Shown: piece by piece, positions 2,856-12,413 of the stretch
Layout: every line of letters starts with the position of its first letter
Numbering within the stretch: position 1 is the first letter of the stretch
Source of the DNA: Synechococcus sp.
Lineage (GTDB): Bacteria > Cyanobacteriota > Cyanobacteriia > PCC-6307 > Cyanobiaceae
DNA: 64,000 bases
Assembly: GCA_047285535.1 (NCBI GenBank)
Contig: JBJBDC010000001.1
Span: 864,136 to 928,135 of the forward strand
Direction: 5' to 3'
Program-made: the position numbers and the translations under genes
The notes under the pieces: model-generated
What the model was told of the DNA's origin: nothing
Databases searched by the model: none
What the model saw: the letters and a program-made list of their open reading frames with translations, nothing else

Positions 2856-3391
2856 GCGCGGCGTCCGGACCTTTCAGGGCAAAGATCTAATTTACCTCTT
2901 CATGTGCAGAATGAGGAAGACTTTACGTAAGCAAGTCCTATCAATGGATTTGACGGAAAACAAGTCCACAGGTAGCTGTACCAAGTGGCTGTTCCCATAG
3001 GAATAGTGCAGCGATGGGCTCAGCTTCAAAGCTCGCTAGGGCGGACGGAGGTCAAGCCTGCGGCTCCGTGGTACGTCCACAGATGCACCTCAGTGCGCTT
3101 AGACGCAATGACGCGGGCAGCCTTGCTTCGACAAACGGGTGCTACTGCTCAGGATCGTTGTGTGAGACATGGATCTCCGCGATTGCAAAATCCGAGCACT
3201 GACAGTCAGGTCCCAGCATTTCTTCGAGATCAGCGTGGGAGCATCCATCAACCCAATCCAAGACAGCGATCTCAGCAGACAAAATCCCCAAGCTGATGAC
3301 AAAGCTCGCGTTTGCTTCGGTAGATGTGGGGGAACACCTAAAAATCCTGGGATTCAAGGCCCAGGGCGTTCTTTTGTCGTAACGTCAATAC

Positions 3392-3637
3392 ATGAAAAAA
3401 ATCATTCTTATTCTTTTCATTGTATTAGCAGCTGGTGGCTGGTCTGGAGGCACTTATGGATCACGCATAGAAGCCAGGAAGGCAAGCCAAAAATGGCAGA
3501 AAGCTGATCCTAATAATCGAGTTTGCCATCTATCAAGTGACTACCGGGAGAAACAATTCAATTGTTTCCAAAAAGATAGTGATGAACAGAACTATGACGA
3601 TCCAAAATATTTTTATTTTAAATGGGGCAGTCAATAA
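3392..3637 (+). CDS. Small hypothetical exported or membrane-anchored protein
   Basis: MKK plus hydrophobic N-terminus, two Cys, AT-rich composition. Confidence 0.6.
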   Translation: MKKIILILFIVLAAGGWSGGTYGSRIEARKASQKWQKADPNNRVCHLSSDYREKQFNCFQKDSDEQNYDDPKYFYFKWGSQ

Positions 3638-4753
3638 TTTCTTTGCCGTGGATCGCAAGAAGTTCGCGCTGTCTCCATCAATCGCTCTCACTGTTGGGCG
3701 AACTCTTTAGTTCCATAGGAAGAGCCCGAGTCTGGGAGGTGCGTGGAACTCCTAAGGTTTGAACGCTCGGCGCCTAAACGAATTGTACAGATTCCATGGA
3801 TTGACTTCTTCCTTGTGTTGAGTCGTGAGTGTGGGGTTCTTCTGCCAACCATTGTCGGTTAGACCCTTGCATCTGTTGCTCGCGCCAATGTTTTTTTGAA
3901 CCAATGTCGTATTGGGTTGTACGAAATTCGAATACTCTGATTAGCTTCAACAGCTTTGATCGAAAATCGATCAATTTTGGGTTGCGTCATTCCGCCAACC
4001 TGGCGGTTTGTCGTTTGCGCCATTGGGCCAATACTTTTTGGCCCTTTGGCAATACCACCACTGAACAACACAGGGGAGTGGCATATCGAGTTGGCGCCAG
4101 GGGCTCCAAAGCTCGTCCATCAACAGCTGTTGAATCACAGATTATTCCAAACTCTCATCAATAGGGCAGTGATCGCCAATGCGGTCTTACACAGCAACAT
4201 CTTTTGCTGTTGCAACACCGTTGTCCATCCACTCGAACTGGACCGACCACAAGATCCGTTTTTAGCTGCTCAACAGCAGTTGCCATACGTTGAAGGTTCA
4301 GAGCCTTATGAAAGCCAGTTCTTGCCTTCTGATACAGGGTTTGATGAGCTCTGTAGAAATCCATCTGGAGAAACCAATAACCTTCCAAGGACTTTCTTCT
4401 TCTCAGCAGTCGCAATTAGTTGCCCAAGGTCCACCCCTGATGGCGTAGTTCTCAGGACCATCAAGAGTTCGGTTTAATCAACAGTGATCGGCAGTCGCTT
4501 TCCAAGCAATGAGTTGCTTGCAGTCTGGCGATATGGACGGACAGCTCCCAGAATAAGTTTCAGGCATGGCTTCAAAGTCGAACTCACAGCTCTTGAACTG
4601 CTCTGAAGAGATTGAGACGATTCACAAGAAGGAATTGATTGTCATCCCTTCGTTGCCATTTAGCATCAATGCAAATGTGAATTAGAGCTCAAGTTCTATT
4701 TCTCCAGAGTCAGCGAGCAAGTCTTAGTACCACCATTGAATGCACCAGAGGTC

Positions 4754-5413
4754 TTACGCAGAAGGACGATTTAACCAACGCAAACTGGCCCGTAACCAAC
4801 CATCACCGTCATCAGAGGCCGGGACATCACTTCCTGCCGCCACTGCGCGCATGGCTCGACGGATCTCCAGGTCCTCGTAGCCCAGTGCGCTCAAAGTGAG
4901 TTGTAAATCCTCAAGAGGGTCAGGCTGAATCGGTAGCTGTTTGAGGTCACTCCGATCAACAAGAGAAAGCCCGGAAGAATCACTCTCGTGCTGCGCACTC
5001 CAGGCACCAAGACGATCACGCAGTTCCACAGCGAGCCGCTCAGCTGTTCGTTTACCAACCCCCTGAGCCTGGGTCAGTCGGCGCAGATCACCATCGATGA
5101 TGGCTTCAATCAGCTCTTCTGCCCTACAGCACTCCAATAATGCAAGACCCATCTGGGGCCCGACACCATTGACGCTGATCAGAACTCGAAACAGGTCTCG
5201 CTCCCTTCGATCAGGGAAACCAAACAAACTGGATCCATCGTCCCGCTGAACCTGATGAATCCAAACGGTGCAAATCGTACCGGCGGAGAGTGGTTGCAGG
5301 TATCGAGAAGCCAATTGGACTTCGTAACCAACTCCAGCGCAGGCAATAACCAAGCCCTGACGTCCGCCCTGACTCCAGTGTTCGATGCGCTCACCTTGCA
5401 GCCAACCGATCAT
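4754..5413 (-). CDS. ruvA: Holliday junction branch migration protein RuvA
   Basis: MIGWLQG, GVGYEV, LISVNGVGP, QGVGKRTAERLAVEL, L.ALGY. Confidence 0.98.
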   Translation of the reverse strand: MIGWLQGERIEHWSQGGRQGLVIACAGVGYEVQLASRYLQPLSAGTICTVWIHQVQRDDGSSLFGFPDRRERDLFRVLISVNGVGPQMGLALLECCRAEELIEAIIDGDLRRLTQAQGVGKRTAERLAVELRDRLGAWSAQHESDSSGLSLVDRSDLKQLPIQPDPLEDLQLTLSALGYEDLEIRRAMRAVAAGSDVPASDDGDGWLRASLRWLNRPSA

Positions 5414-5643
5414 GCGAAAGAGTCCAATTGCTGTATCAACATTTGCTCGGGCACTGAGTATGAGAAGGAATCAGACCAATCAACCTGTGAGCCAAGACCA
5501 GCCAGCTCACACAGGATGGTCAGTCTGCGAAATGAGATTCGCTCGATCATCCGTAAGAAAAACCCAGCAAGACGCACATTGATCTGTTCCTTTTTAGAAC
5601 TGAATTTCGCACCACTGTTACCACCAGACTGAACCTGAGCCAT
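5410..5643 (-). CDS. Hypothetical protein overlapping the ruvA start
   Basis: Stop overlaps the ruvA ATG (ATGA); no recognisable domain. Confidence 0.3.
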   Translation of the reverse strand: MAQVQSGGNSGAKFSSKKEQINVRLAGFFLRMIERISFRRLTILCELAGLGSQVDWSDSFSYSVPEQMLIQQLDSFA

Positions 5644-5856
5644 AGAAAAGATCTGGTCTTTGGTCAAAAAATCACAAAAGCCTTCTTCTGCTCATCAAAG
5701 GAGCGCAGGAGGGAAACTGACTCTCAAAGTCCCTCATAAGAGCTCCAAAGCAGTCGTGGAGCTCTGAACGTTTGGATCGATCACGAAGATGCTCAGAAAA
5801 GGCAATGGCAGCATGCCCAAAGAAGTGGAGCAACGGTTCAACGAAACGACAGACAT

Positions 5857-5883
5857 AAAAAAGAAGGCCAGGAAGCCTTCTTT
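5857..5883 (-). terminator. Rho-independent terminator of the candidate sRNA
   Basis: 9-bp inverted repeat aaagaaggc/gccttcttt with 6-nt loop; U6 tail on the minus strand. Confidence 0.75.
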
Positions 5884-5931
5884 AGGGGTGTGAGGAACCA
5901 AATCGTGTGAGGAGATGGCTTCTCCATCGAT
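5857..5931 (-). ncRNA. Candidate Yfr1-like small RNA with two CCUCACAC seed motifs
   Basis: Minus strand reads GATGG-agaag-CCATC (5' hairpin), CTCCTCACAC (5914-5905), TTCCTCACAC (5897-5888), then terminator hairpin GAAGGC-ttcctg-GCCTTC and TTTTTT. Confidence 0.7.
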
Positions 5932-6201
5932 AGGAACACTGAGCCAATGAGTCAACAAGCTGATGCTCTGAGGTTTGTTGCAACTGACAGACCTTACTGT
6001 GTACTGATGTGCATCAGAACCTCTTGAAATCAAAGCGTCAAGCCAAAACCAACACAGGACAAACTCGTCAATCACGGCCCCAATCAACCGGATATGGAGA
6101 CAATGCCTTTGAATCCACAAAAAAGGCGATTACCTGCACATCATCGATTCAAGCTTTTAATCTTGATCCACGCAGAAACCCTGACCTGTTAAGGTAAAGA
6201 A

Positions 6202-6230
6202 ATAATGGAAATAATTATCGCTTTCATTAT
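6202..6230. promoter_or_regulatory. Putative Fur-family (Fur/Zur/PerR) operator upstream of the porin
   Basis: AT-rich imperfect palindrome ataatggaaataattatcgctttcattat containing the 7-1-7-like TGGAAAT-A-ATTATCG. Confidence 0.4.
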
Positions 6231-6232
6231 AT

Positions 6233-6242
6233 TTGTGTGAGG
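6233..6242 (+). promoter_or_regulatory. Yfr1-type sRNA target site overlapping the porin RBS
   Basis: TTGTGTGAGG ends 6 nt before the TTG start; complementary to CCUCACAC. Confidence 0.7.
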
Positions 6243-6248
6243 TTTAAT

Positions 6249-7823
6249 TTGAAACTATTTCGCAAACTGCTGGTGGCTCCAGCGGCTCTGGGTCTTCTGG
6301 CCCCTGTGGCTGCGAACGCCACTGAGCTGAACATCAACGGTGTGTCTGACTACACCGCCACTGGTGAACAGGTCACCAGCATCACTCAGTTTTCTGATGT
6401 GTACCCCACGGATTGGGCCTATCAGGCCCTGAGCAACCTGATCGAACGCTACGGCTGCGTCGCTGGATACCCCAACGGCACCTACCGCGGCAACAGGGCG
6501 ATGACCCGCTTTGAAGCGGCGGCTCTGTTGAACGCCTGTCTCGATCGCGTCACCGAAGTGACCGACGAACTCAAGCGCTTGATGAAAGAGTTCGAGAAGG
6601 AACTCGCCATCCTCAAGGGCCGTGTGGACGGACTGGAAGCCCGTGTTGGTGAACTGGAAGCCACTCAGTTCTCCACCACCACCAAGCTGAAAGGTCTAGC
6701 GACTTTTGCCATTGGCGCTAATAACTTTTATGGAACGAAATCATTAACTCGTGAAAGCAAACGCGAGTTTGGAGGCACCACGTTTAATTACGACCTTCAA
6801 TTAAGCCTTGAAACAAGTTTCACAGGAAAAGATCTACTCCTTACGGTCTTAAGATCTGGAAACTTTGAAACATCTGCATTTGGTGATGGTGGTGGACCAA
6901 CAGGACTATCCACCTTGGAAACCGCATTCCAAGAAGACTCTGGCCCTAATTCCGTAGGGATCGATAAATTATTTTATCAATTCCCAGTTGGCAGCTCATT
7001 CACCTTCACTTTGGGTGGACAAGTAGGCCAAGAGGACATGCTGGCTGTTTGGCCAAGTGCATATCCAAGTGAAACTATTTTAAATGTAACGACTCTCAAT
7101 GGCGCGCCAGCTGCTTACAACAAAAATCTAGGGCCAGGTGCGGGTGTGAGCTGGGCAACAGAAAGCGGATTTAGCATTTCTGCTAACTACGTTGCAGCGA
7201 ATGGAGCCATTGGAAATCCCAGGGAAGGTGGAATTGCGACCAGGAATTCATTGTCCTCTGGAACAGTTCAAATTGCCTATGAATCAGAGAACTGGAACAT
7301 AGCCGCTATTTATTCTGGAATCCAGAATTCAGCACAACTAATAGGAGGGTTTGGTACGACTTTTAATGAAGTGTTCACTGGCTCCAATGCCTTTATGAAT
7401 GCATGGGGCATTGGTGGTTCATGGCAACCTCAAGAGAGTGGCTGGATCCCCTCTATTTCTGCTGGATACGGATACAACACTGTAGAGGCAAACATTGATT
7501 TCGAAGTTTCAGGGAGCCAATCCTGGCTTGTAGGCCTGCAGTGGAATGATGTGTTCCTTAAGGGGAACAATGCTGGTATGGCCGTTGGTCAACCCGTTTT
7601 TGCCACAAGACAGAAAGGAGATTTCACTCCAGGAGACGGCAACTATGTATGGGAATGGTGGTATCAATTCCAGGTTACAGACAATATTAGCGTTACACCT
7701 GCATTGTTTTATCTCTCGAGTCCACTTGGCCAGTTCACTGAGCAGTTCACTGAGCAATTTGCTGGCAATGGCGCAACTTTTTCACAGCTTGGAGGACTCG
7801 TTAAAACTTCATTTAAATTCTAG
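6249..7823 (+). CDS. Cyanobacterial Som-type porin (SLH domain plus OprB-like beta-barrel)
   Basis: Signal peptide, SLH motif FSDVYPTDWAYQAL...TRFEAAA, coiled coil, FSTTTKL, terminal KTSFKF; TTG start MKLFRKLLVA. Confidence 0.96.
   Translation: MKLFRKLLVAPAALGLLAPVAANATELNINGVSDYTATGEQVTSITQFSDVYPTDWAYQALSNLIERYGCVAGYPNGTYRGNRAMTRFEAAALLNACLDRVTEVTDELKRLMKEFEKELAILKGRVDGLEARVGELEATQFSTTTKLKGLATFAIGANNFYGTKSLTRESKREFGGTTFNYDLQLSLETSFTGKDLLLTVLRSGNFETSAFGDGGGPTGLSTLETAFQEDSGPNSVGIDKLFYQFPVGSSFTFTLGGQVGQEDMLAVWPSAYPSETILNVTTLNGAPAAYNKNLGPGAGVSWATESGFSISANYVAANGAIGNPREGGIATRNSLSSGTVQIAYESENWNIAAIYSGIQNSAQLIGGFGTTFNEVFTGSNAFMNAWGIGGSWQPQESGWIPSISAGYGYNTVEANIDFEVSGSQSWLVGLQWNDVFLKGNNAGMAVGQPVFATRQKGDFTPGDGNYVWEWWYQFQVTDNISVTPALFYLSSPLGQFTEQFTEQFAGNGATFSQLGGLVKTSFKF
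7731..7760 (+). repeat. 12-bp tandem duplication in a porin C-terminal loop (QFTE-QFTE-QF)
   Basis: cagttcactgag x2 followed by caattt. Confidence 0.85.
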
Positions 7824-7829
7824 ATATGT

Positions 7830-7858
7830 CCAGGCCTGATTTGCATCAGGCCTGGTTT
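7830..7858 (+). terminator. Porin terminator
   Basis: Perfect 11-bp inverted repeat ccaggcctgat-ttgc-atcaggcctgg followed by ttt. Confidence 0.8.
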
Positions 7859-8368
7859 CAATAGTCACGAAAAAATCACAACTGAAGCGATGATCACGAA
7901 AAATCTTGCCAAAATCATATTATTGCATGAGCATAGAAGAGCTTGAATGGACAAGCTCTCACTTCAAAACCAGATCTCACTGAACCTGAACTTACATCGC
8001 CGTAAAAAATCGATTCCCGCAAAAGACGACTGCAGTGCAACAACAATCACATAAACAAATTTCCCAGCCAAAGCATTCATCGGCCACCTCCTAGTATGAC
8101 AACAAAACTCCCATTTTATCAAAAAAAATACAACCAGAAACTAACTACACTGATGAGCTGCCATAGGCTAGTCCGTTCAGAACGTATCTGAATCGATTGA
8201 TGAAATTGAGTGCAAAGACACAGCAATACTTGGCATGGACCAAGCCTTCTCGTTAGATTTTACCTACCCTTTATCCTGAATTAGTAATCTCAATCAAATA
8301 ATCCGTACACCATCTATGATCGGAACGACAGAAATCCATGATTTGGTTATCAAAGACCTCATCTGCTC

Positions 8369-8851
8369 ATGTTGACTGACCTGGCTGGCCTTTCATGTCA
8401 AAACTTTTGGATTGTTCCTTCCAAACGCCTCGTTGAGGGGTTGTTGGTTTTAGCGCTGGTGTTGCTCCTAAGCGTGGGATTAACCGGGTGTGGGCCCTTC
8501 GACCAACCGCCACGAAGTGTGCTGTTGAAAGCTCTTGGTCTACAGATTGAATTGACCCAAACGGCGATTGCCCACTCTTTGGAGTTAGAGCCAGCTGGGG
8601 TCCCGGAGGTGAGTCGTGTGCGCATAGAAAATCAAGAGTCCATTCGCTTGGGTGAGCAACGCGGAATCCATCTCAGAGGCCGTTTCGACTGGCGACTGCC
8701 AGCTGACCCCGTACGTGTTGACAGTCCTTTTGAACTTTTCTTGGAGCGTGGTGAACAGGGTGAAAGCTGGCAATTGATTCAACCTGTTGGCTCCAGCGAT
8801 GGAACATCTCAGGATTGGATCACCCATCCGCTACCGATAGATTCGCCCTGA
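8369..8851 (+). CDS. Conserved hypothetical lipoprotein (true start probably downstream)
   Basis: Lipobox-like LTGC after a hydrophobic stretch; SPFELFLERG..GESW motif. Confidence 0.75.
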   Translation: MLTDLAGLSCQNFWIVPSKRLVEGLLVLALVLLLSVGLTGCGPFDQPPRSVLLKALGLQIELTQTAIAHSLELEPAGVPEVSRVRIENQESIRLGEQRGIHLRGRFDWRLPADPVRVDSPFELFLERGEQGESWQLIQPVGSSDGTSQDWITHPLPIDSP

Positions 8852-8868
8852 ACCCAACGATCAAATCG

Positions 8869-9783
8869 TTAGGCCTCTGGTTGTCTGGAAGACCTCGCGC
8901 TCAAGCTGATCAAGGTCGCTCCTAAAACGCACATGGCACCAAGCACCACGCCGCCGGTAATCGGCTCTGCGAAAAACAACATTCCCCAAAAAGACGCAAA
9001 CACCACCTGGACGTAATTGATCGAGGTGGCTCGGGCTGCGGGAAGAGCAGCAAGGCCTTCGGTTAACCAGATTTGCCCAAGTTGAGTAAATAAACCAACC
9101 CCCAGTAGCCAGATCCATTCCGTTGGTGTTGGCAAGAGAGTGGGTTGGCCCCAAAGCAACAGCAGAGTCGCGGGCACAGAAACCAATGGGAAGTAAAAGA
9201 CAATCACCAGCGGGTGCTCTTTCACTGAGAGTTGACGCACACTTACGTATGAAAGTGCCGTCAGCAAAGCTCCGCTCACGCCAATTAGGGCTGCCATTAC
9301 TGGCAGGTTTTGCGTTGTGCTGTCGACCCACTGTGGCTGCACAACCAAAGTGACACCGACCAGCCCCAAAAGCACTGCAATGCCAAGGCGCCGTCTCACA
9401 TATTCACCCAGCAGCAACCATGCCGCCAAAGCTGTCAGGGTTGGATAGGTGTATTGCAGCAGGGTGGCCGCTGCTAAAGGCAGTCTTGCCAGTGCGTCAA
9501 AAAAACACAACAGAGCTGCAGTTCCAAGCCCCCCACGTACCAATAACAATCTCCGTTGCTCTCCCCACGGTGAGACCCCAAGGCGACGAAGCATTGCCAA
9601 GGTAATGGCAATGCTGATCAAAGAGCGCACCAACACGACCTCCGCCACTGGTAAACGTCCTCCCAGGTATTTCACGCAGACGGTCATCAAACTGAAAGCC
9701 AGTGCACAAGCAATCAGAAGACCGCAGGCGCGCCATTCTTGTGCCGTCTGGCTGCCTTTGATTGCGCGTAGCAGCCCTTGCAT
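8869..9783 (-). CDS. DMT/EamA family transporter
   Basis: About 10 TM helices, two EamA repeats (LGE motif, FAEP). Confidence 0.92.
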   Translation of the reverse strand: MQGLLRAIKGSQTAQEWRACGLLIACALAFSLMTVCVKYLGGRLPVAEVVLVRSLISIAITLAMLRRLGVSPWGEQRRLLLVRGGLGTAALLCFFDALARLPLAAATLLQYTYPTLTALAAWLLLGEYVRRRLGIAVLLGLVGVTLVVQPQWVDSTTQNLPVMAALIGVSGALLTALSYVSVRQLSVKEHPLVIVFYFPLVSVPATLLLLWGQPTLLPTPTEWIWLLGVGLFTQLGQIWLTEGLAALPAARATSINYVQVVFASFWGMLFFAEPITGGVVLGAMCVLGATLISLSARSSRQPEA

Positions 9784-9998
9784 GGTTGATCAACAGCTTT
9801 CAAAAAAGTACAAGCCTGCTTTTACAGGCTTTTCTAAATGTATGACCCAATGATTGAAACACCGGGCTAAAACTCCAGAGTGAAACTTCGTGAGGTGGGG
9901 ACGATCATCAGGGGTTTTTTGGAGTATCTAATCCAGAGATTGAACGCAAAATATGATCGAACGATATTCTGTCCTGCCTTGAAAGCTCGGAACATCCA

Positions 9999-10199
9999 TT
10001 AGATACGGACTTCCAACATCCTTGCTGAATCCATGCGTTCTGCTTCTCGTGAGAGAAATTCGTACCACATGCTCACCAGGACATTGAAAGTGTTGAGCGC
10101 CCGAATTTGCTCATCTGAACCGGGATCAGTGTACTTAAAATCCATAAACATTCGATCAGCAATGACCTGTTGCTCCTTACACCTTGTATCAATCGACAT
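9999..10199 (-). CDS. Small hypothetical protein
   Basis: 66-aa protein-like ORF in tandem with an upstream small membrane ORF. Confidence 0.65.
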   Translation of the reverse strand: MSIDTRCKEQQVIADRMFMDFKYTDPGSDEQIRALNTFNVLVSMWYEFLSREAERMDSARMLEVRI

Positions 10200-10202
10200 T
10201 GA

Positions 10203-10337
10203 TCATCCCTGAGTTTGAGATTTCTTGACGACAGGGAGGTCAGAGGGCTGCACAAGAACAAAAATCACAGCAGCAGAAATGACTGCGGTGAAGCCAAGCA
10301 ATCCAATGAACGCAGTTATGCAGTCAACCATTGGCAT
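10203..10337 (-). CDS. 44-aa single-TM microprotein (not in ORF track)
   Basis: MPMVDCITAFIGLLGFTAVISAAVIFVLVQPSDLPVVKKSQTQG*; ends 3 nt before the next ATG. Confidence 0.6.
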   Translation of the reverse strand: MPMVDCITAFIGLLGFTAVISAAVIFVLVQPSDLPVVKKSQTQG

Positions 10338-10863
10338 ACTTCATGAAGTCACGCAAAGAGCCTAGTCTTTTCGTGAAGAATTGTAAACAGACTGATCGCT
10401 GGATCAGCTTAAGTGCTTACACACTTGATCCGAGCACTCCAAGACTGCGCAGCGGTTCAGGCGGACCTACAAACATCACTGAACTGTCCCAGCTATCAGA
10501 GCACTCTTAAGGAAGCAGGAGCCCCTGGCTTTAGTACGGCCCCGTTGCAACACGATGCTTGTACAAGTAGATCAGACGATTGCATTGATCACGATTGGCA
10601 CATGGCGAAGGGATCTAGCCATAGGAGCAAGCAGGCATCCAAGAATTGCAGGGGCAACCGGATACTCCCAGCCTCAGACGAGAAGGAGAGACGAATGCAG
10701 TCAGGCCTTGAGGGTGAGCTGATCTGACCTGCATTCACTGGATGGCATGCCCTTCTCATGCCTGACAATCCATGGCACATGGCGTCGATCGTTCGTTTAG
10801 TCGCAATGGAGACATCCAACAGCTGTCTCGAAGATTAATTTTCTTTTTTGACAAATACTTGTT

Positions 10864-10938
10864 ATGGGATTTCTGCTTGTCGCTGGTTGCATGGCTTTAG
10901 CAGCCGTCATGTCTGCATCGTTAACCGAGAAAAACTGA
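10864..10938 (+). CDS. 24-aa hydrophobic microprotein (not in ORF track)
   Basis: MGFLLVAGCMALAAVMSASLTEKN*; GC-richer than its AT-rich flanks. Confidence 0.4.
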   Translation: MGFLLVAGCMALAAVMSASLTEKN

Positions 10939-11102
10939 TCTAGATTCGAAATCATCCAATCACATGTTTTGATGTTTTTGTTCCAAGCAGGAGCAACTCA
11001 TCACTGTAGTCCTACAATTTTTTGAATCACTACCGATCACACACGGCGTATCAGCTTCAAAGAATTCTGTTGATTAAAGCTCCATCTAATTAACCACAAT
11101 GC

Positions 11103-11291
11103 TTAGCATCCAAAAATTTTGGAAGCCACATTATTTTTCATTATCCAATCAAAGCTGGGACCTAAAAATTTCTCTCGTACTTCTTCTTCCTGCCATAGGA
11201 ACCAGGAGTGTAGAAACCCATGAAAACCAGCATTTTTGTAATATCGCTCCTCCCGGCAAAGAGATTGCCCCTCATTGGATTGATTTGTCAT
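11103..11291 (-). CDS. Small hypothetical protein
   Basis: 62-aa aromatic-rich ORF from MTNQSNEG. Confidence 0.5.
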   Translation of the reverse strand: MTNQSNEGQSLCREERYYKNAGFHGFLHSWFLWQEEEVREKFLGPSFDWIMKNNVASKIFGC

Positions 11292-12413
11292 TATCAGACA
11301 AGAGAAGCCGACACAGGCTTTTAATTTACTCAATCGCTTGACAATTCAGGCACGACGGATTCACCCTTATCTGAAGCATATTTTATATCTTGCAAGGGAT
11401 GCGAAATCTCCTTATTGACATACAACTCTTTGATCTCACTTAACTCAATAAGCAACCGTTCAGCACGGCTATTTTGATCACTAATCGAGTGATGATCCAA
11501 TAAATGGACTCAAAATTGGGTAAGGCACCCAACCAAGACCCAGGGTTCCAGCAACCAGCAATTGTCCTGACGGCCACGACATCGCACAAAGCCTTGGCGT
11601 TTAGCCTAGGCATCCCAAAAAGACCAATGGAATCACCTGAACGCAATGTACCGTTTTCGTAGACATTCCTCCTCGCACCGTCCAAAATGACGCGTGCCAA
11701 ACCATCGCCTGCCATAAGCATCCCGAACAATTGCTGATCAATAGAGCAGAGGGTGACTTGTATATCTTCAATCTTTTAGCCAAATCTTCTTAATCGCTAA
11801 TGCATTGGATGATGCTTATGAAACAGCAGGCATCCATTTTGCAGCAAATTAACATCACCTGCGTTTGCGATGAGACCGATTCGCAACAATGCAGCTTTGG
11901 CTTGAATAGCAGGGGAGTATCGAGAGCATTGCACGCAGAATAGAGACACCTAGCTTTCGTTACTGCAGTCGATCGTGACTACCTGATGGATATCATTGAC
12001 AGCAGATCTTCCTCAGCAGCCCACATCCATGGACCTGAGCAGCCGTTTTCTCTAGCGGAATGGGCAAGGCAGGCTTGAGTCGCACATCAGACTAGATATG
12101 GCAGAAACGCATTGCAAACTCAGTCGCGAAAAAGAAGAACCTGTTGCCCCACGAGATGGACAGCTGTTCTTTGTATCTGGAGCCCATCGGTGAAGTTTCC
12201 AGCATCGATGTTCATCAGCCCCAGCGAGGAGTTGTCCTTCAGCACTGGTGTTGAGGACTTGTCTTAAGTCACTCCTTCAGATGTTGCAGAAGTTTTCTCC
12301 CTATCGAGTGGTTGAGTACGCCCGCATGATTGAAGAGCCGGATTGGCCCTCGATCACCGATGTCCCATCGTGGTGAACAACCACGATGGGCTCAGGTCTC
12401 GCAGAATGGTCCC

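Follow-up and report, generated by a model that had tools for sequence, protein, structure and literature searches.

Few RNA regulatory networks have been studied in the phototrophs that are most abundant in the ocean; one of them is made up of the small RNAs (sRNAs) Yfr1, Yfr10 and Yfr2. Porins are nutrient gates and likely phage receptors. In marine picocyanobacteria, the yfr1 gene usually lies between guaB and trxA. Here, we analysed a Yfr1-like locus in a 64,000-nucleotide (nt) stretch of a Synechococcus sp. genome (G000, a single 3.03-Mb contig of 50.6% G+C; NCBI GenBank assembly GCA_047285535.1, contig JBJBDC010000001.1, positions 864,136 to 928,135), referred to as the window. Positions 5920–5857 on its minus strand are most likely a free-standing gene for a trans-acting sRNA of about 64 nt, being the syntenic copy of one sequence type (type 2, see below). 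The locus very probably is a real sRNA gene of a conserved, structured and uncatalogued family that joins the linker-motif layout of Yfr1 to the loop-motif layout of Yfr10. Yfr1 (Rfam RF01116) has been outlined as two stem-loops around an unpaired stretch with ACUCCUCACAC (Voss et al. 2007, PMC2190773). According to the section of PMC6778093 dealing with these RNAs, Yfr1 represses the leader of the PMM1121 porin and Yfr2 relieves this repression, Yfr10 carries the same motif in a loop, and Yfr2 binds Yfr1 and Yfr10 more tightly than an mRNA target, Yfr1 and Yfr10 in turn shielding Yfr2 from RNase E. The Yfr2 family is marked by the Rfam model Cyano-1 (RF01701), as summarised in PMC8400943.

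Direct reading of the minus strand from 5955 to 5857 revealed, in order, TTGACT, a 17-nt spacer, TATCGAT, GGAGAA, GCCAUC, UCCUCACAC, GAUUUGGU, UCCUCACAC, CCCUA, a hairpin and a U-run. The two Yfr1-type motifs are CTCCTCACAC at 5914–5905 (motif 1, CUCCUCACAC) and TTCCTCACAC at 5897–5888 (motif 2, UUCCUCACAC), separated by the 7 nt GATTTGG. They are followed at 5883–5857 by an intrinsic terminator, with a hairpin of 10 base pairs (4 of them G-C) and a 4-nt loop at 5883–5860 and a T-run (U6) ending at 5857. Both motifs, the 7-nt spacer and the minus-strand terminator had been proposed in the initial annotation of this locus, and were borne out by direct reading and a pattern search. In the minimum free energy fold predicted for the 64-nt transcript, stem-loop 1 (5919–5897) is formed by the pairs G5919-U5897, C5918-G5898, C5917-G5899, A5916-U5900, U5915-A5903 and C5914-G5904, in agreement with pairing probabilities and the orthologue alignment; its loop, CUCACAC, contains most of motif 1. 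Motif 2 is predicted to be unpaired (probability ~0.99) in the linker between stem-loop 1 and the terminator. Taken alone, the number of motifs is weak evidence, since the window contains two matches to YTCCTCACAC against 0.42 expected and 6 of 100 shuffles also reach two. Across the genome, the Yfr1-type 9-mer was not enriched either (25 matches vs 22 for the reversed control).

The genome carries four two-motif loci (A at 446.5 kb, B at 811.0 kb, C, the window copy, at 870.0 kb, and D at 1,638.9 kb), next to a canonical Yfr1 at 222262–222318. The latter lies between the IMPDH/guaB and thioredoxin/trxA genes, the window locus between a porin gene and ruvA. When the locus was compared with the Rfam Yfr1 model, as the initial annotation had suggested, no match was found at E ≤ 10 in 5700–6300, nor any at the gathering threshold (38 bits) in the whole window. 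The same search of the whole genome at E ≤ 10 yielded 15 matches, of which one exceeded the cut-off (62.3 bits, G000:222262-222318) and none coincided with the four two-motif copies. Because even E ≤ 10 gave no match, these copies are not Yfr1 members by the curated test, and the idea of a minus-strand two-motif gene distinct from canonical Yfr1 is supported. A weak Rfam match to STnc40 (19.7 bits, E 0.9, plus strand) concerned mainly the terminator hairpin and was rejected. Like Yfr1 (RF01116; PMC2190773; PMC2796815), the predicted RNA presents the core UCCUCACAC unpaired between a 5′ stem-loop and a terminator, is of similar size (54–69 nt), and has porin ribosome-binding sites as its predicted targets. 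Unlike Yfr1, it escapes the Rfam model, is located away from guaB-trxA, occurs in multiple copies, carries a second copy of the motif in the loop of its 5′ hairpin, and lacks the leading A of ACUCCUCACAC in both motifs. Aligned with the Yfr1 11-mer, motif 2 matches at 9 of 11 positions (GUUCCUCACAC) and motif 1 at 10 of 11 (UCUCCUCACAC), motif 2 being the one that fits the stem-loop/linker/terminator layout.

A covariance model (R1) was built from 19 copies, all from one genus and including the window copy. It matched the window over its full length at 5856–5923 on the minus strand (80.2 bits, E 3e-17), which was the sole match below E 0.1, no other exceeding 14 bits. Because its sequence helped to build R1, the score of the window copy is partly circular; independent support comes from the synteny of type 2 in 6 orthologues and 13 contigs, as detailed below. 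Among 40 other genomes of the same genus, R1 matched 30 at E ≤ 1e-5 and gave weaker matches in 3, with none in the remaining 7, and up to 6 copies per genome. In a further run with stricter filters, and with the model stemming from one genus only, R1 at E ≤ 1e-4 matched none of the 141 genomes of good quality sampled from 35 further genera of the taxonomic family, vs 8 of 9 in the genus. Moreover, the paired pattern TCCTCA-N6-16-TCCTCACAC was present in 23 of 301 genomes of the taxonomic family, with 10 of the 16 others in the genus among them; its reversed control matched once in all 301. As for viruses, a loose two-motif pattern occurred in at least 118 viral contigs, but these matches are attributed to chance because R1 matched none of the 80 listed loci; the family core TTGGCTCCTCACACCCC was found in no viral contig, and the exact variant of the window copy in no metagenome contig. 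On this sampling, the family is restricted to a single genus of marine picocyanobacteria.

The family comprises at least six sequence types with one layout. Their 5′ stems are GCCAA/UUGGC (type 1), GCCA..UC/GA..UGGC (type 2, to which the window copy belongs), GAAAGC/GCUUUUC (type 3), GAUCAACU/AGUUGAUC (type 4), AGUUGG/CCAACU (type 5) and GUCAA/UUGAC (type 6). When 45 copies were aligned to R1, 94.1% of the cells paired, vs 76.4% in shuffles (0 of 500 reaching the observed value) and 37–66% when the pairing was slid, in an alignment that was fitted to R1 and thus favours structure; the unrelated stem sequences are nevertheless visible in the raw sequences. Changes on both sides affected 9 of 14 pairs, stem 1 accounting for 3 (of its 5) and the terminator for 6 (of its 9), so that both helices covary across the genus, a check that the initial annotation had put forward. 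The linker motif 2, UCCUCACAC, was invariant in all 45 copies. The loop motif 1, CUCCUCAC, was intact in 38 and broken by a point change in 7, with the full 10-mer present in 6 of the 45, including the window copy. In the type-1 fold, the CCU of motif 1 pairs with AGG, leaving CACA only as the exposed loop. A single-motif relative with a weak R1 match (L079; G191:C1:1490702-1490786, minus strand) consists of the stem GUUGGUG/CACCAAC with a plain AAA loop, UCCUCACAC and a terminator, which shows that the genus also harbours forms lacking the loop motif.

The loop motif also invites comparison with Yfr10, Yfr12 and Yfr18 of Prochlorococcus MED4 (PMC2518516, PMC6778093), which, as far as these descriptions extend, are likewise additional, poorly conserved sRNAs with a Yfr1 motif and several copies per genome. 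As in the available account of MED4 Yfr10, the motif is exposed in a loop atop a stem, 7 nt (CUCACAC) in the window copy, and as in the Yfr10 class in general the genes adjoin those of the Yfr2 family, which is true of the two-motif family at large, not of the window copy. Unlike the present genes, which carry two motifs and are usually divergent from yfr2 with ~80 nt shared, Yfr10, Yfr12 and Yfr18 are described in those parts of the literature with one motif and on the same strand upstream of yfr2. Homologues of Yfr10 are poorly conserved (PMC6778093). The 'Yfr10-like' sRNA of strain WH8102 (Lambrecht et al. 2019) is similar in being a marine Synechococcus sRNA with a Yfr1 motif besides Yfr1. 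The sole exact match to its probe, in a genome of another genus (G403), has one motif (CCCUCCUCACACGG) in an unrelated body, no Cyano-1 match lies within 1.2 kb of it, and R1 found nothing in 10 genomes of that genus; this candidate was rejected as a family member. Full-text literature searches retrieved no description of a two-motif RNA, Gierga et al. 2012 and the supplementary figures of Lambrecht et al. 2019 lying outside their scope, so that an earlier description is possible.

A different arrangement was seen in four other genera (loci L010, L011, L013-L015, L017 and L029-L031), where two Yfr1-type motifs follow the stop codon of Som-type porins (proteins ending in F) after 0–28 nt, often between tandem porin genes and ahead of terminators. 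This arrangement suggests porin-tail RNAs with the same seed in those genera. Unlike these motifs, which lie on the porin's own strand after its stop codon, the window gene is free-standing, has promoter-like boxes of its own and runs divergently from the porin gene. In this genome, no Yfr1-type motif was seen in the tail of any of the 9 porins, and the window locus does not fit an sRNA derived from a porin 3′ untranslated region, being encoded upstream of the porin gene on the other strand.

The 5′ part of the locus differs from what had been proposed. The initial annotation placed a 5′ hairpin at GATGG (5928–5924)/CCATC (5918–5914) and estimated the RNA at ~75 nt. The two arms do pair in the window sequence, but across 8 syntenic orthologues only 40% of the cells of this hairpin pair, within the 12–65% of slid controls, and its GATGG arm overlaps a conserved –10-like box. 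What is conserved at the 5′ side is another stem, namely stem 1 with motif 1 in its loop, which pairs in 100% of the cells over the same 8 type-2 orthologues, an alignment almost without variation. Since the GATGG arm overlaps the –10 position and the hairpin is not conserved, the RNA is more likely ~64 nt long (5920–5857), an extent that is also in line with the R1 match and the predicted fold.

Upstream of this putative start, TTGACT at 5955–5950 forms a –35-like hexamer, of which TTGAC is shared by 20 of 20 type-1 and type-2 copies and the sixth base, T, by 19, and TATCGAT at 5932–5926 forms a weak –10-like box, aligned with a semi-conserved nAnnAT(G) box 17–18 nt past the –35. The conservation profile of these 20 copies comprises a block ending in TTGACT, a variable spacer, nAnnAT(G), ~6 variable nt and the RNA body, and conservation falls off directly after the T-run. 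Such a profile is the one expected of an independent gene, whose boundaries would lie at these transitions. In a compact divergent promoter region, a palindrome, ATCAGT-N6-ACTGAT, was seen to overlap the –35 of the sRNA ~40–60 nt upstream of the yfr2 start (L006:1560-1593, with equivalents in L018-L036), a degenerate version of it being present at 5950–5972 in the window. CGRE1, a promoter element described for yfr2 (PMC6191309), begins nearby, at roughly the same distance from yfr2. As a regulon marker the palindrome is uninformative, because the genome has only 5 sites of TCAGT-N6-ACTGA, copies B and D accounting for 2, and control counts range from 0 to 13.

Synteny provided independent evidence for the gene. 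The window segments 772–2908, 4754–5417 (ruvA) and 5857–5964 (the sRNA and its putative promoter) align in order with 6 other genomes of the genus, making the window copy a syntenic type-2 orthologue, and its conserved downstream context consists of an 85-amino-acid open reading frame (ORF; 5667–5410) and ruvA (5413–4754; Pfam RuvA_N/HHH_5/RuvA_C), both on the minus strand, with ~190 nt between the sRNA terminator and the small ORF. Compared with its type-2 orthologues, the window copy has both motifs, stem 1 (with one G-C changed to G-U) and the terminator intact, and a more complete motif 1. Upstream of ~5964 similarity stops, so that homology ends ~45–50 nt upstream of the putative sRNA start; the other 6 genomes carry 2–4.8 kb of different DNA there, and synteny resumes at 8440–9790. 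The type-2 element was also present in 13 metagenome contigs, 12 of them with ruvA alongside and the 13th cut at that point. The segments 2908–4754, whose ORFs have no Pfam match, and 9786–12366 are absent from the six syntenic genomes, and together with the porin segment (~5964–8440) they mark the neighbourhood as a variable islet. No tRNA genes, as integration sites, were found near copies A–D.

The divergent neighbour in this genome only is a gene for a Som-type porin of 524 amino acids (OprB and SLH domains by Pfam; 6249–7823, plus strand; protein ending in KTSFKF) with a probable TTG start at 6249. As the initial annotation had stated, this porin lies about 315–320 nt from the locus and carries a complementary site: GTGTGAGG occurs at 6235–6242 just before the start, and a site search and cofolding identify this GUGUGAGG site, overlapping the Shine-Dalgarno sequence, as the predicted target. 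The proposed self-contained sRNA–porin module fared less well. With the neighbouring porin as query, tblastn found no porin in the six syntenic 13-kb regions (covering 8–10 kb upstream of the sRNA), and none of the 13 contigs has a porin within up to 2 kb upstream of the type-2 element. With the porin absent from all of these, the adjacency is specific to this genome; it would be an accident of this one genome, through a genome-specific rearrangement, and the notion of a dedicated sRNA–porin cassette does not hold. The same loci decide against the suggestion that the plus strand is the functional one, with GTGTGAGGAA and GTGTGAGGAG ~320–345 nt upstream of the porin start serving as a pair of additional sites for Yfr1 within a long porin leader or a decoy RNA: this can hardly be right, since the terminator with its adjoining U-run, the covarying helices and the promoter-like boxes belong to the minus strand and are kept at loci free of porins, and R1 scores 80.2 bits on the minus strand vs 13.7 bits (hairpin alone) on the plus strand.

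Complementarity to porins extends well beyond the neighbour. Of the 9 porin paralogs in the genome, 8 carry GUGUGAGG 6–7 nt before the start codon, thus at the ribosome-binding site, and the ninth carries GGUGUGAGAG. Genome-wide, GTGTGAGG has 48 sites, 9 of which lie 3–12 nt before an ORF of at least 100 amino acids, and 8 of those 9 ORFs are porins; control 8-mers of similar type gave 3–10 such sites out of 72–141 occurrences each. Cofolding predicted that motif 2 pairs with positions –14 to –7 of the porin mRNAs. With the seed only, copies A and B and canonical Yfr1 reached –4 to –10.6 kcal/mol on porin leaders, and the window copy reached –6 to –16.7 kcal/mol via extra predicted pairing of its stem-1 arms with codons 2–10. 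For the neighbouring porin, the free-energy difference (ddG) was –15.4 kcal/mol, shuffles giving a mean of –7.1 (standard deviation 2.4) and –14.7 as the best of 200.

Some further features of these porins were recorded. An apparent TTG start is shared by 3 of the 9 (6249 in the window, and G000:C1 820657 and 1469277), with the variant leader UGUGUGAGGUUUAAUUUG or GGUGUGAGAGUUCAAUUUG, the other six having GGUGUGAGGACCGAAAAUG. The first ~450 nt of the neighbouring porin gene (6250–6700) are ~95% identical to two paralogs (L004 and L007), and the whole protein is 57–62% identical to its eight paralogs. This near-identity at the 5′ end, where the signal peptide and the SLH domain are encoded, points to gene conversion or to strong constraint. 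Outside the window, three tandem 686-bp repeats (G000:C1 2029873, 2030559 and 2031245) carry a sense ACTCCTCACAC ~9 nt before an ATG, which in each repeat opens a signal-peptide-like ORF (MNRSLSLLSAFALSS...), the Yfr1 motif thus lying within the mRNA leader.

The family is normally encoded beside a Yfr2/Cyano-1 gene, which lends support to the interplay with Yfr2-type RNAs that the initial annotation had raised. Specifically, copies A, B and D have a divergent Cyano-1 gene ~80 nt from the putative sRNA start, as do all 6 of the other type-1 loci that were scanned; elsewhere a Cyano-1 gene also adjoins the scanned type-5 and type-6 loci (divergent at type 5), is convergent at type 4 and is absent at type 3. 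At the orthologous type-2 loci of several genomes, Cyano-1 (minus) is followed by type 6 (plus) and type 2 (plus). In 4 genomes the orthologous locus was seen to carry type 6, with the degenerate loop motif CUCCUGAC, and then type 2 in tandem 170–300 nt further on (L039 9752-9822 and 9991-10059; likewise in G135, G037 and G286). The genome has 4 Cyano-1 genes above threshold, and copies B and D share a 557-bp unit of 98.4% identity that comprises the sRNA gene, the intergenic region and yfr2; the two units (810679–811235 and 1638546–1639102) occupy distant sites with unrelated flanks and no tRNA gene nearby. The Yfr2 homologues have unpaired 5′ ends with GGGUGAGGAGG, in one case GUGUGAGGAG, which cofold with motif 2 at –13 to –14.5 kcal/mol. 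In G037, a Glutamine-II riboswitch aptamer (RF01704, 57.1 bits; L023:323-382, minus strand) was observed ~1.1 kb from a type-1 sRNA/yfr2 pair.

These data suggest a mechanism by analogy with Yfr1 and Yfr10, which we regard as probable though well short of assured: the invariant linker motif would mask porin ribosome-binding sites, and Yfr2 would counteract this. The 5′ stem-loop would present one Yfr1-type motif (CUCACAC), the unpaired linker would carry UCCUCACAC as the principal seed, and the intrinsic terminator would end the RNA. Pairing of the linker motif with GUGUGAGG(A) over the Shine-Dalgarno sequence of Som-type porins would block translation initiation, and the loop motif would add either a weaker contact of its own or another binding site. 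By binding the sRNA, Yfr2-family RNAs would neutralise it, both motifs being complementary to their unpaired 5′ end, GGUGAGGAG. In the window copy, the yfr2 partner would have been lost, and the porin brought alongside by the genome-specific rearrangement.

Several observations weigh against this interpretation, in addition to the fitting of the 45-copy alignment to R1. Motif 1, being broken in 7 of 45 copies and largely paired in type 1, may not be a true second seed. The extended pairing between the stem-1 arms and porin codons is a single-sequence prediction with a mononucleotide shuffle as its control. The neighbouring porin has no more than an 8-mer as its site, and transcription from one predicted porin promoter would begin within this 8-mer. 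The promoter and 5′ end of the sRNA are putative: a consensus promoter scan called no sigma-70-like promoter upstream of the window copy or of two relatives' copies, although it does call the neighbouring yfr2 promoter at a relative's locus, and the –10 of the window copy (TATCGAT) is among the weakest in the family. Metatranscriptome matches were obtained in 9 RNA runs, each with a small word share, and the 4 that were checked cover only 6236–6700, the conserved 5′ part of the porin from relatives, with no cover over 5400–6235; this blank over the sRNA is uninformative either way, because contigs drop short RNAs. Finally, the window has no Cyano-1 match at the gathering threshold, with none at E ≤ 10 near the window copy and no second family copy, and the R1 score of the window copy is below that of its relatives (80 vs 88–93 bits). 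Given this lower score, the degenerate upstream palindrome and the missing Yfr2 partner, the window copy could be decaying.

It is possible, if unlikely, that the main role of the family is instead that of a partner or decoy of Yfr2 RNAs, its motifs titrating Yfr2 or shielding it from RNase E and any effect on porins arising indirectly, as canonical Yfr1 is freed or competed with. The back-to-back arrangement with Cyano-1/Yfr2 genes would fit such a role, as would the predicted pairing with Yfr2 5′ ends, which is stronger than the seed-only pairing with porins, and the tighter Yfr2 binding and RNase E shielding reported in the cited part of PMC6778093. However, the window copy has no Yfr2 gene nearby, motif 2 is the very seed that Yfr1 uses on porin leaders, and its site is kept in 8 of 9 porins; the two roles are, moreover, not mutually exclusive.

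More improbable is that the copy is decaying or silent, with too little expression left to be useful, as what remains of a [yfr2, type-6, type-2] cluster, the upstream half of which was replaced by the porin segment. Both the Cyano-1 gene and the tandem type-6 copy of the orthologous locus are missing here, homology breaks off shortly upstream of the putative start, the palindrome over the –35 is degenerate and the –10 weak, and the R1 score is the lowest among type-2 copies. Yet decay would have spared both motifs, stem 1, the terminator and the –35 TTGACT, and motif 1 is more complete than in the orthologues. More improbable still would be a leader with an attenuating terminator that controls read-through into the small ORF and ruvA, along the lines of the 'actuaton' idea described for Yfr2c in part of PMC6596454. 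The type-2 copy does always lie on the same strand upstream of this pair (6 genomes, and the 12 of 13 contigs with that flank), but the same RNA architecture recurs beside other neighbours at numerous unrelated sites, and the strong terminator (10 bp and U6) ends ~190 nt before the ORF. Porin ribosome-binding-site masking through the linker motif thus stays the preferred interpretation.

A bolder and unlikely version of this interpretation is that the family comprises two-site riboregulators toggled with their own antagonist and that the window copy, having escaped from this switch, is a constitutive porin-specific silencer. The loop and linker motifs might then hold two partners at once, either two porin mRNAs or a porin mRNA and a Yfr2 RNA, and the back-to-back promoters, sharing the palindromic box over the sRNA –35, might render expression of the sRNA and of yfr2 mutually exclusive. 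The window copy would have sharpened motif 1 to the complete CUCCUCACAC and come to lie next to a porin whose variant site matches.

If the family is what it appears to be, a genus-wide, multi-copy, two-motif relative of Yfr1 absent from Rfam would add several regulators in one Synechococcus lineage, and would explain why the yfr2 genes there are paired with another conserved element. It would also serve as a natural experiment on the importance of having one seed or two. For annotation, R1 marks 1–6 unannotated RNA genes per genome.

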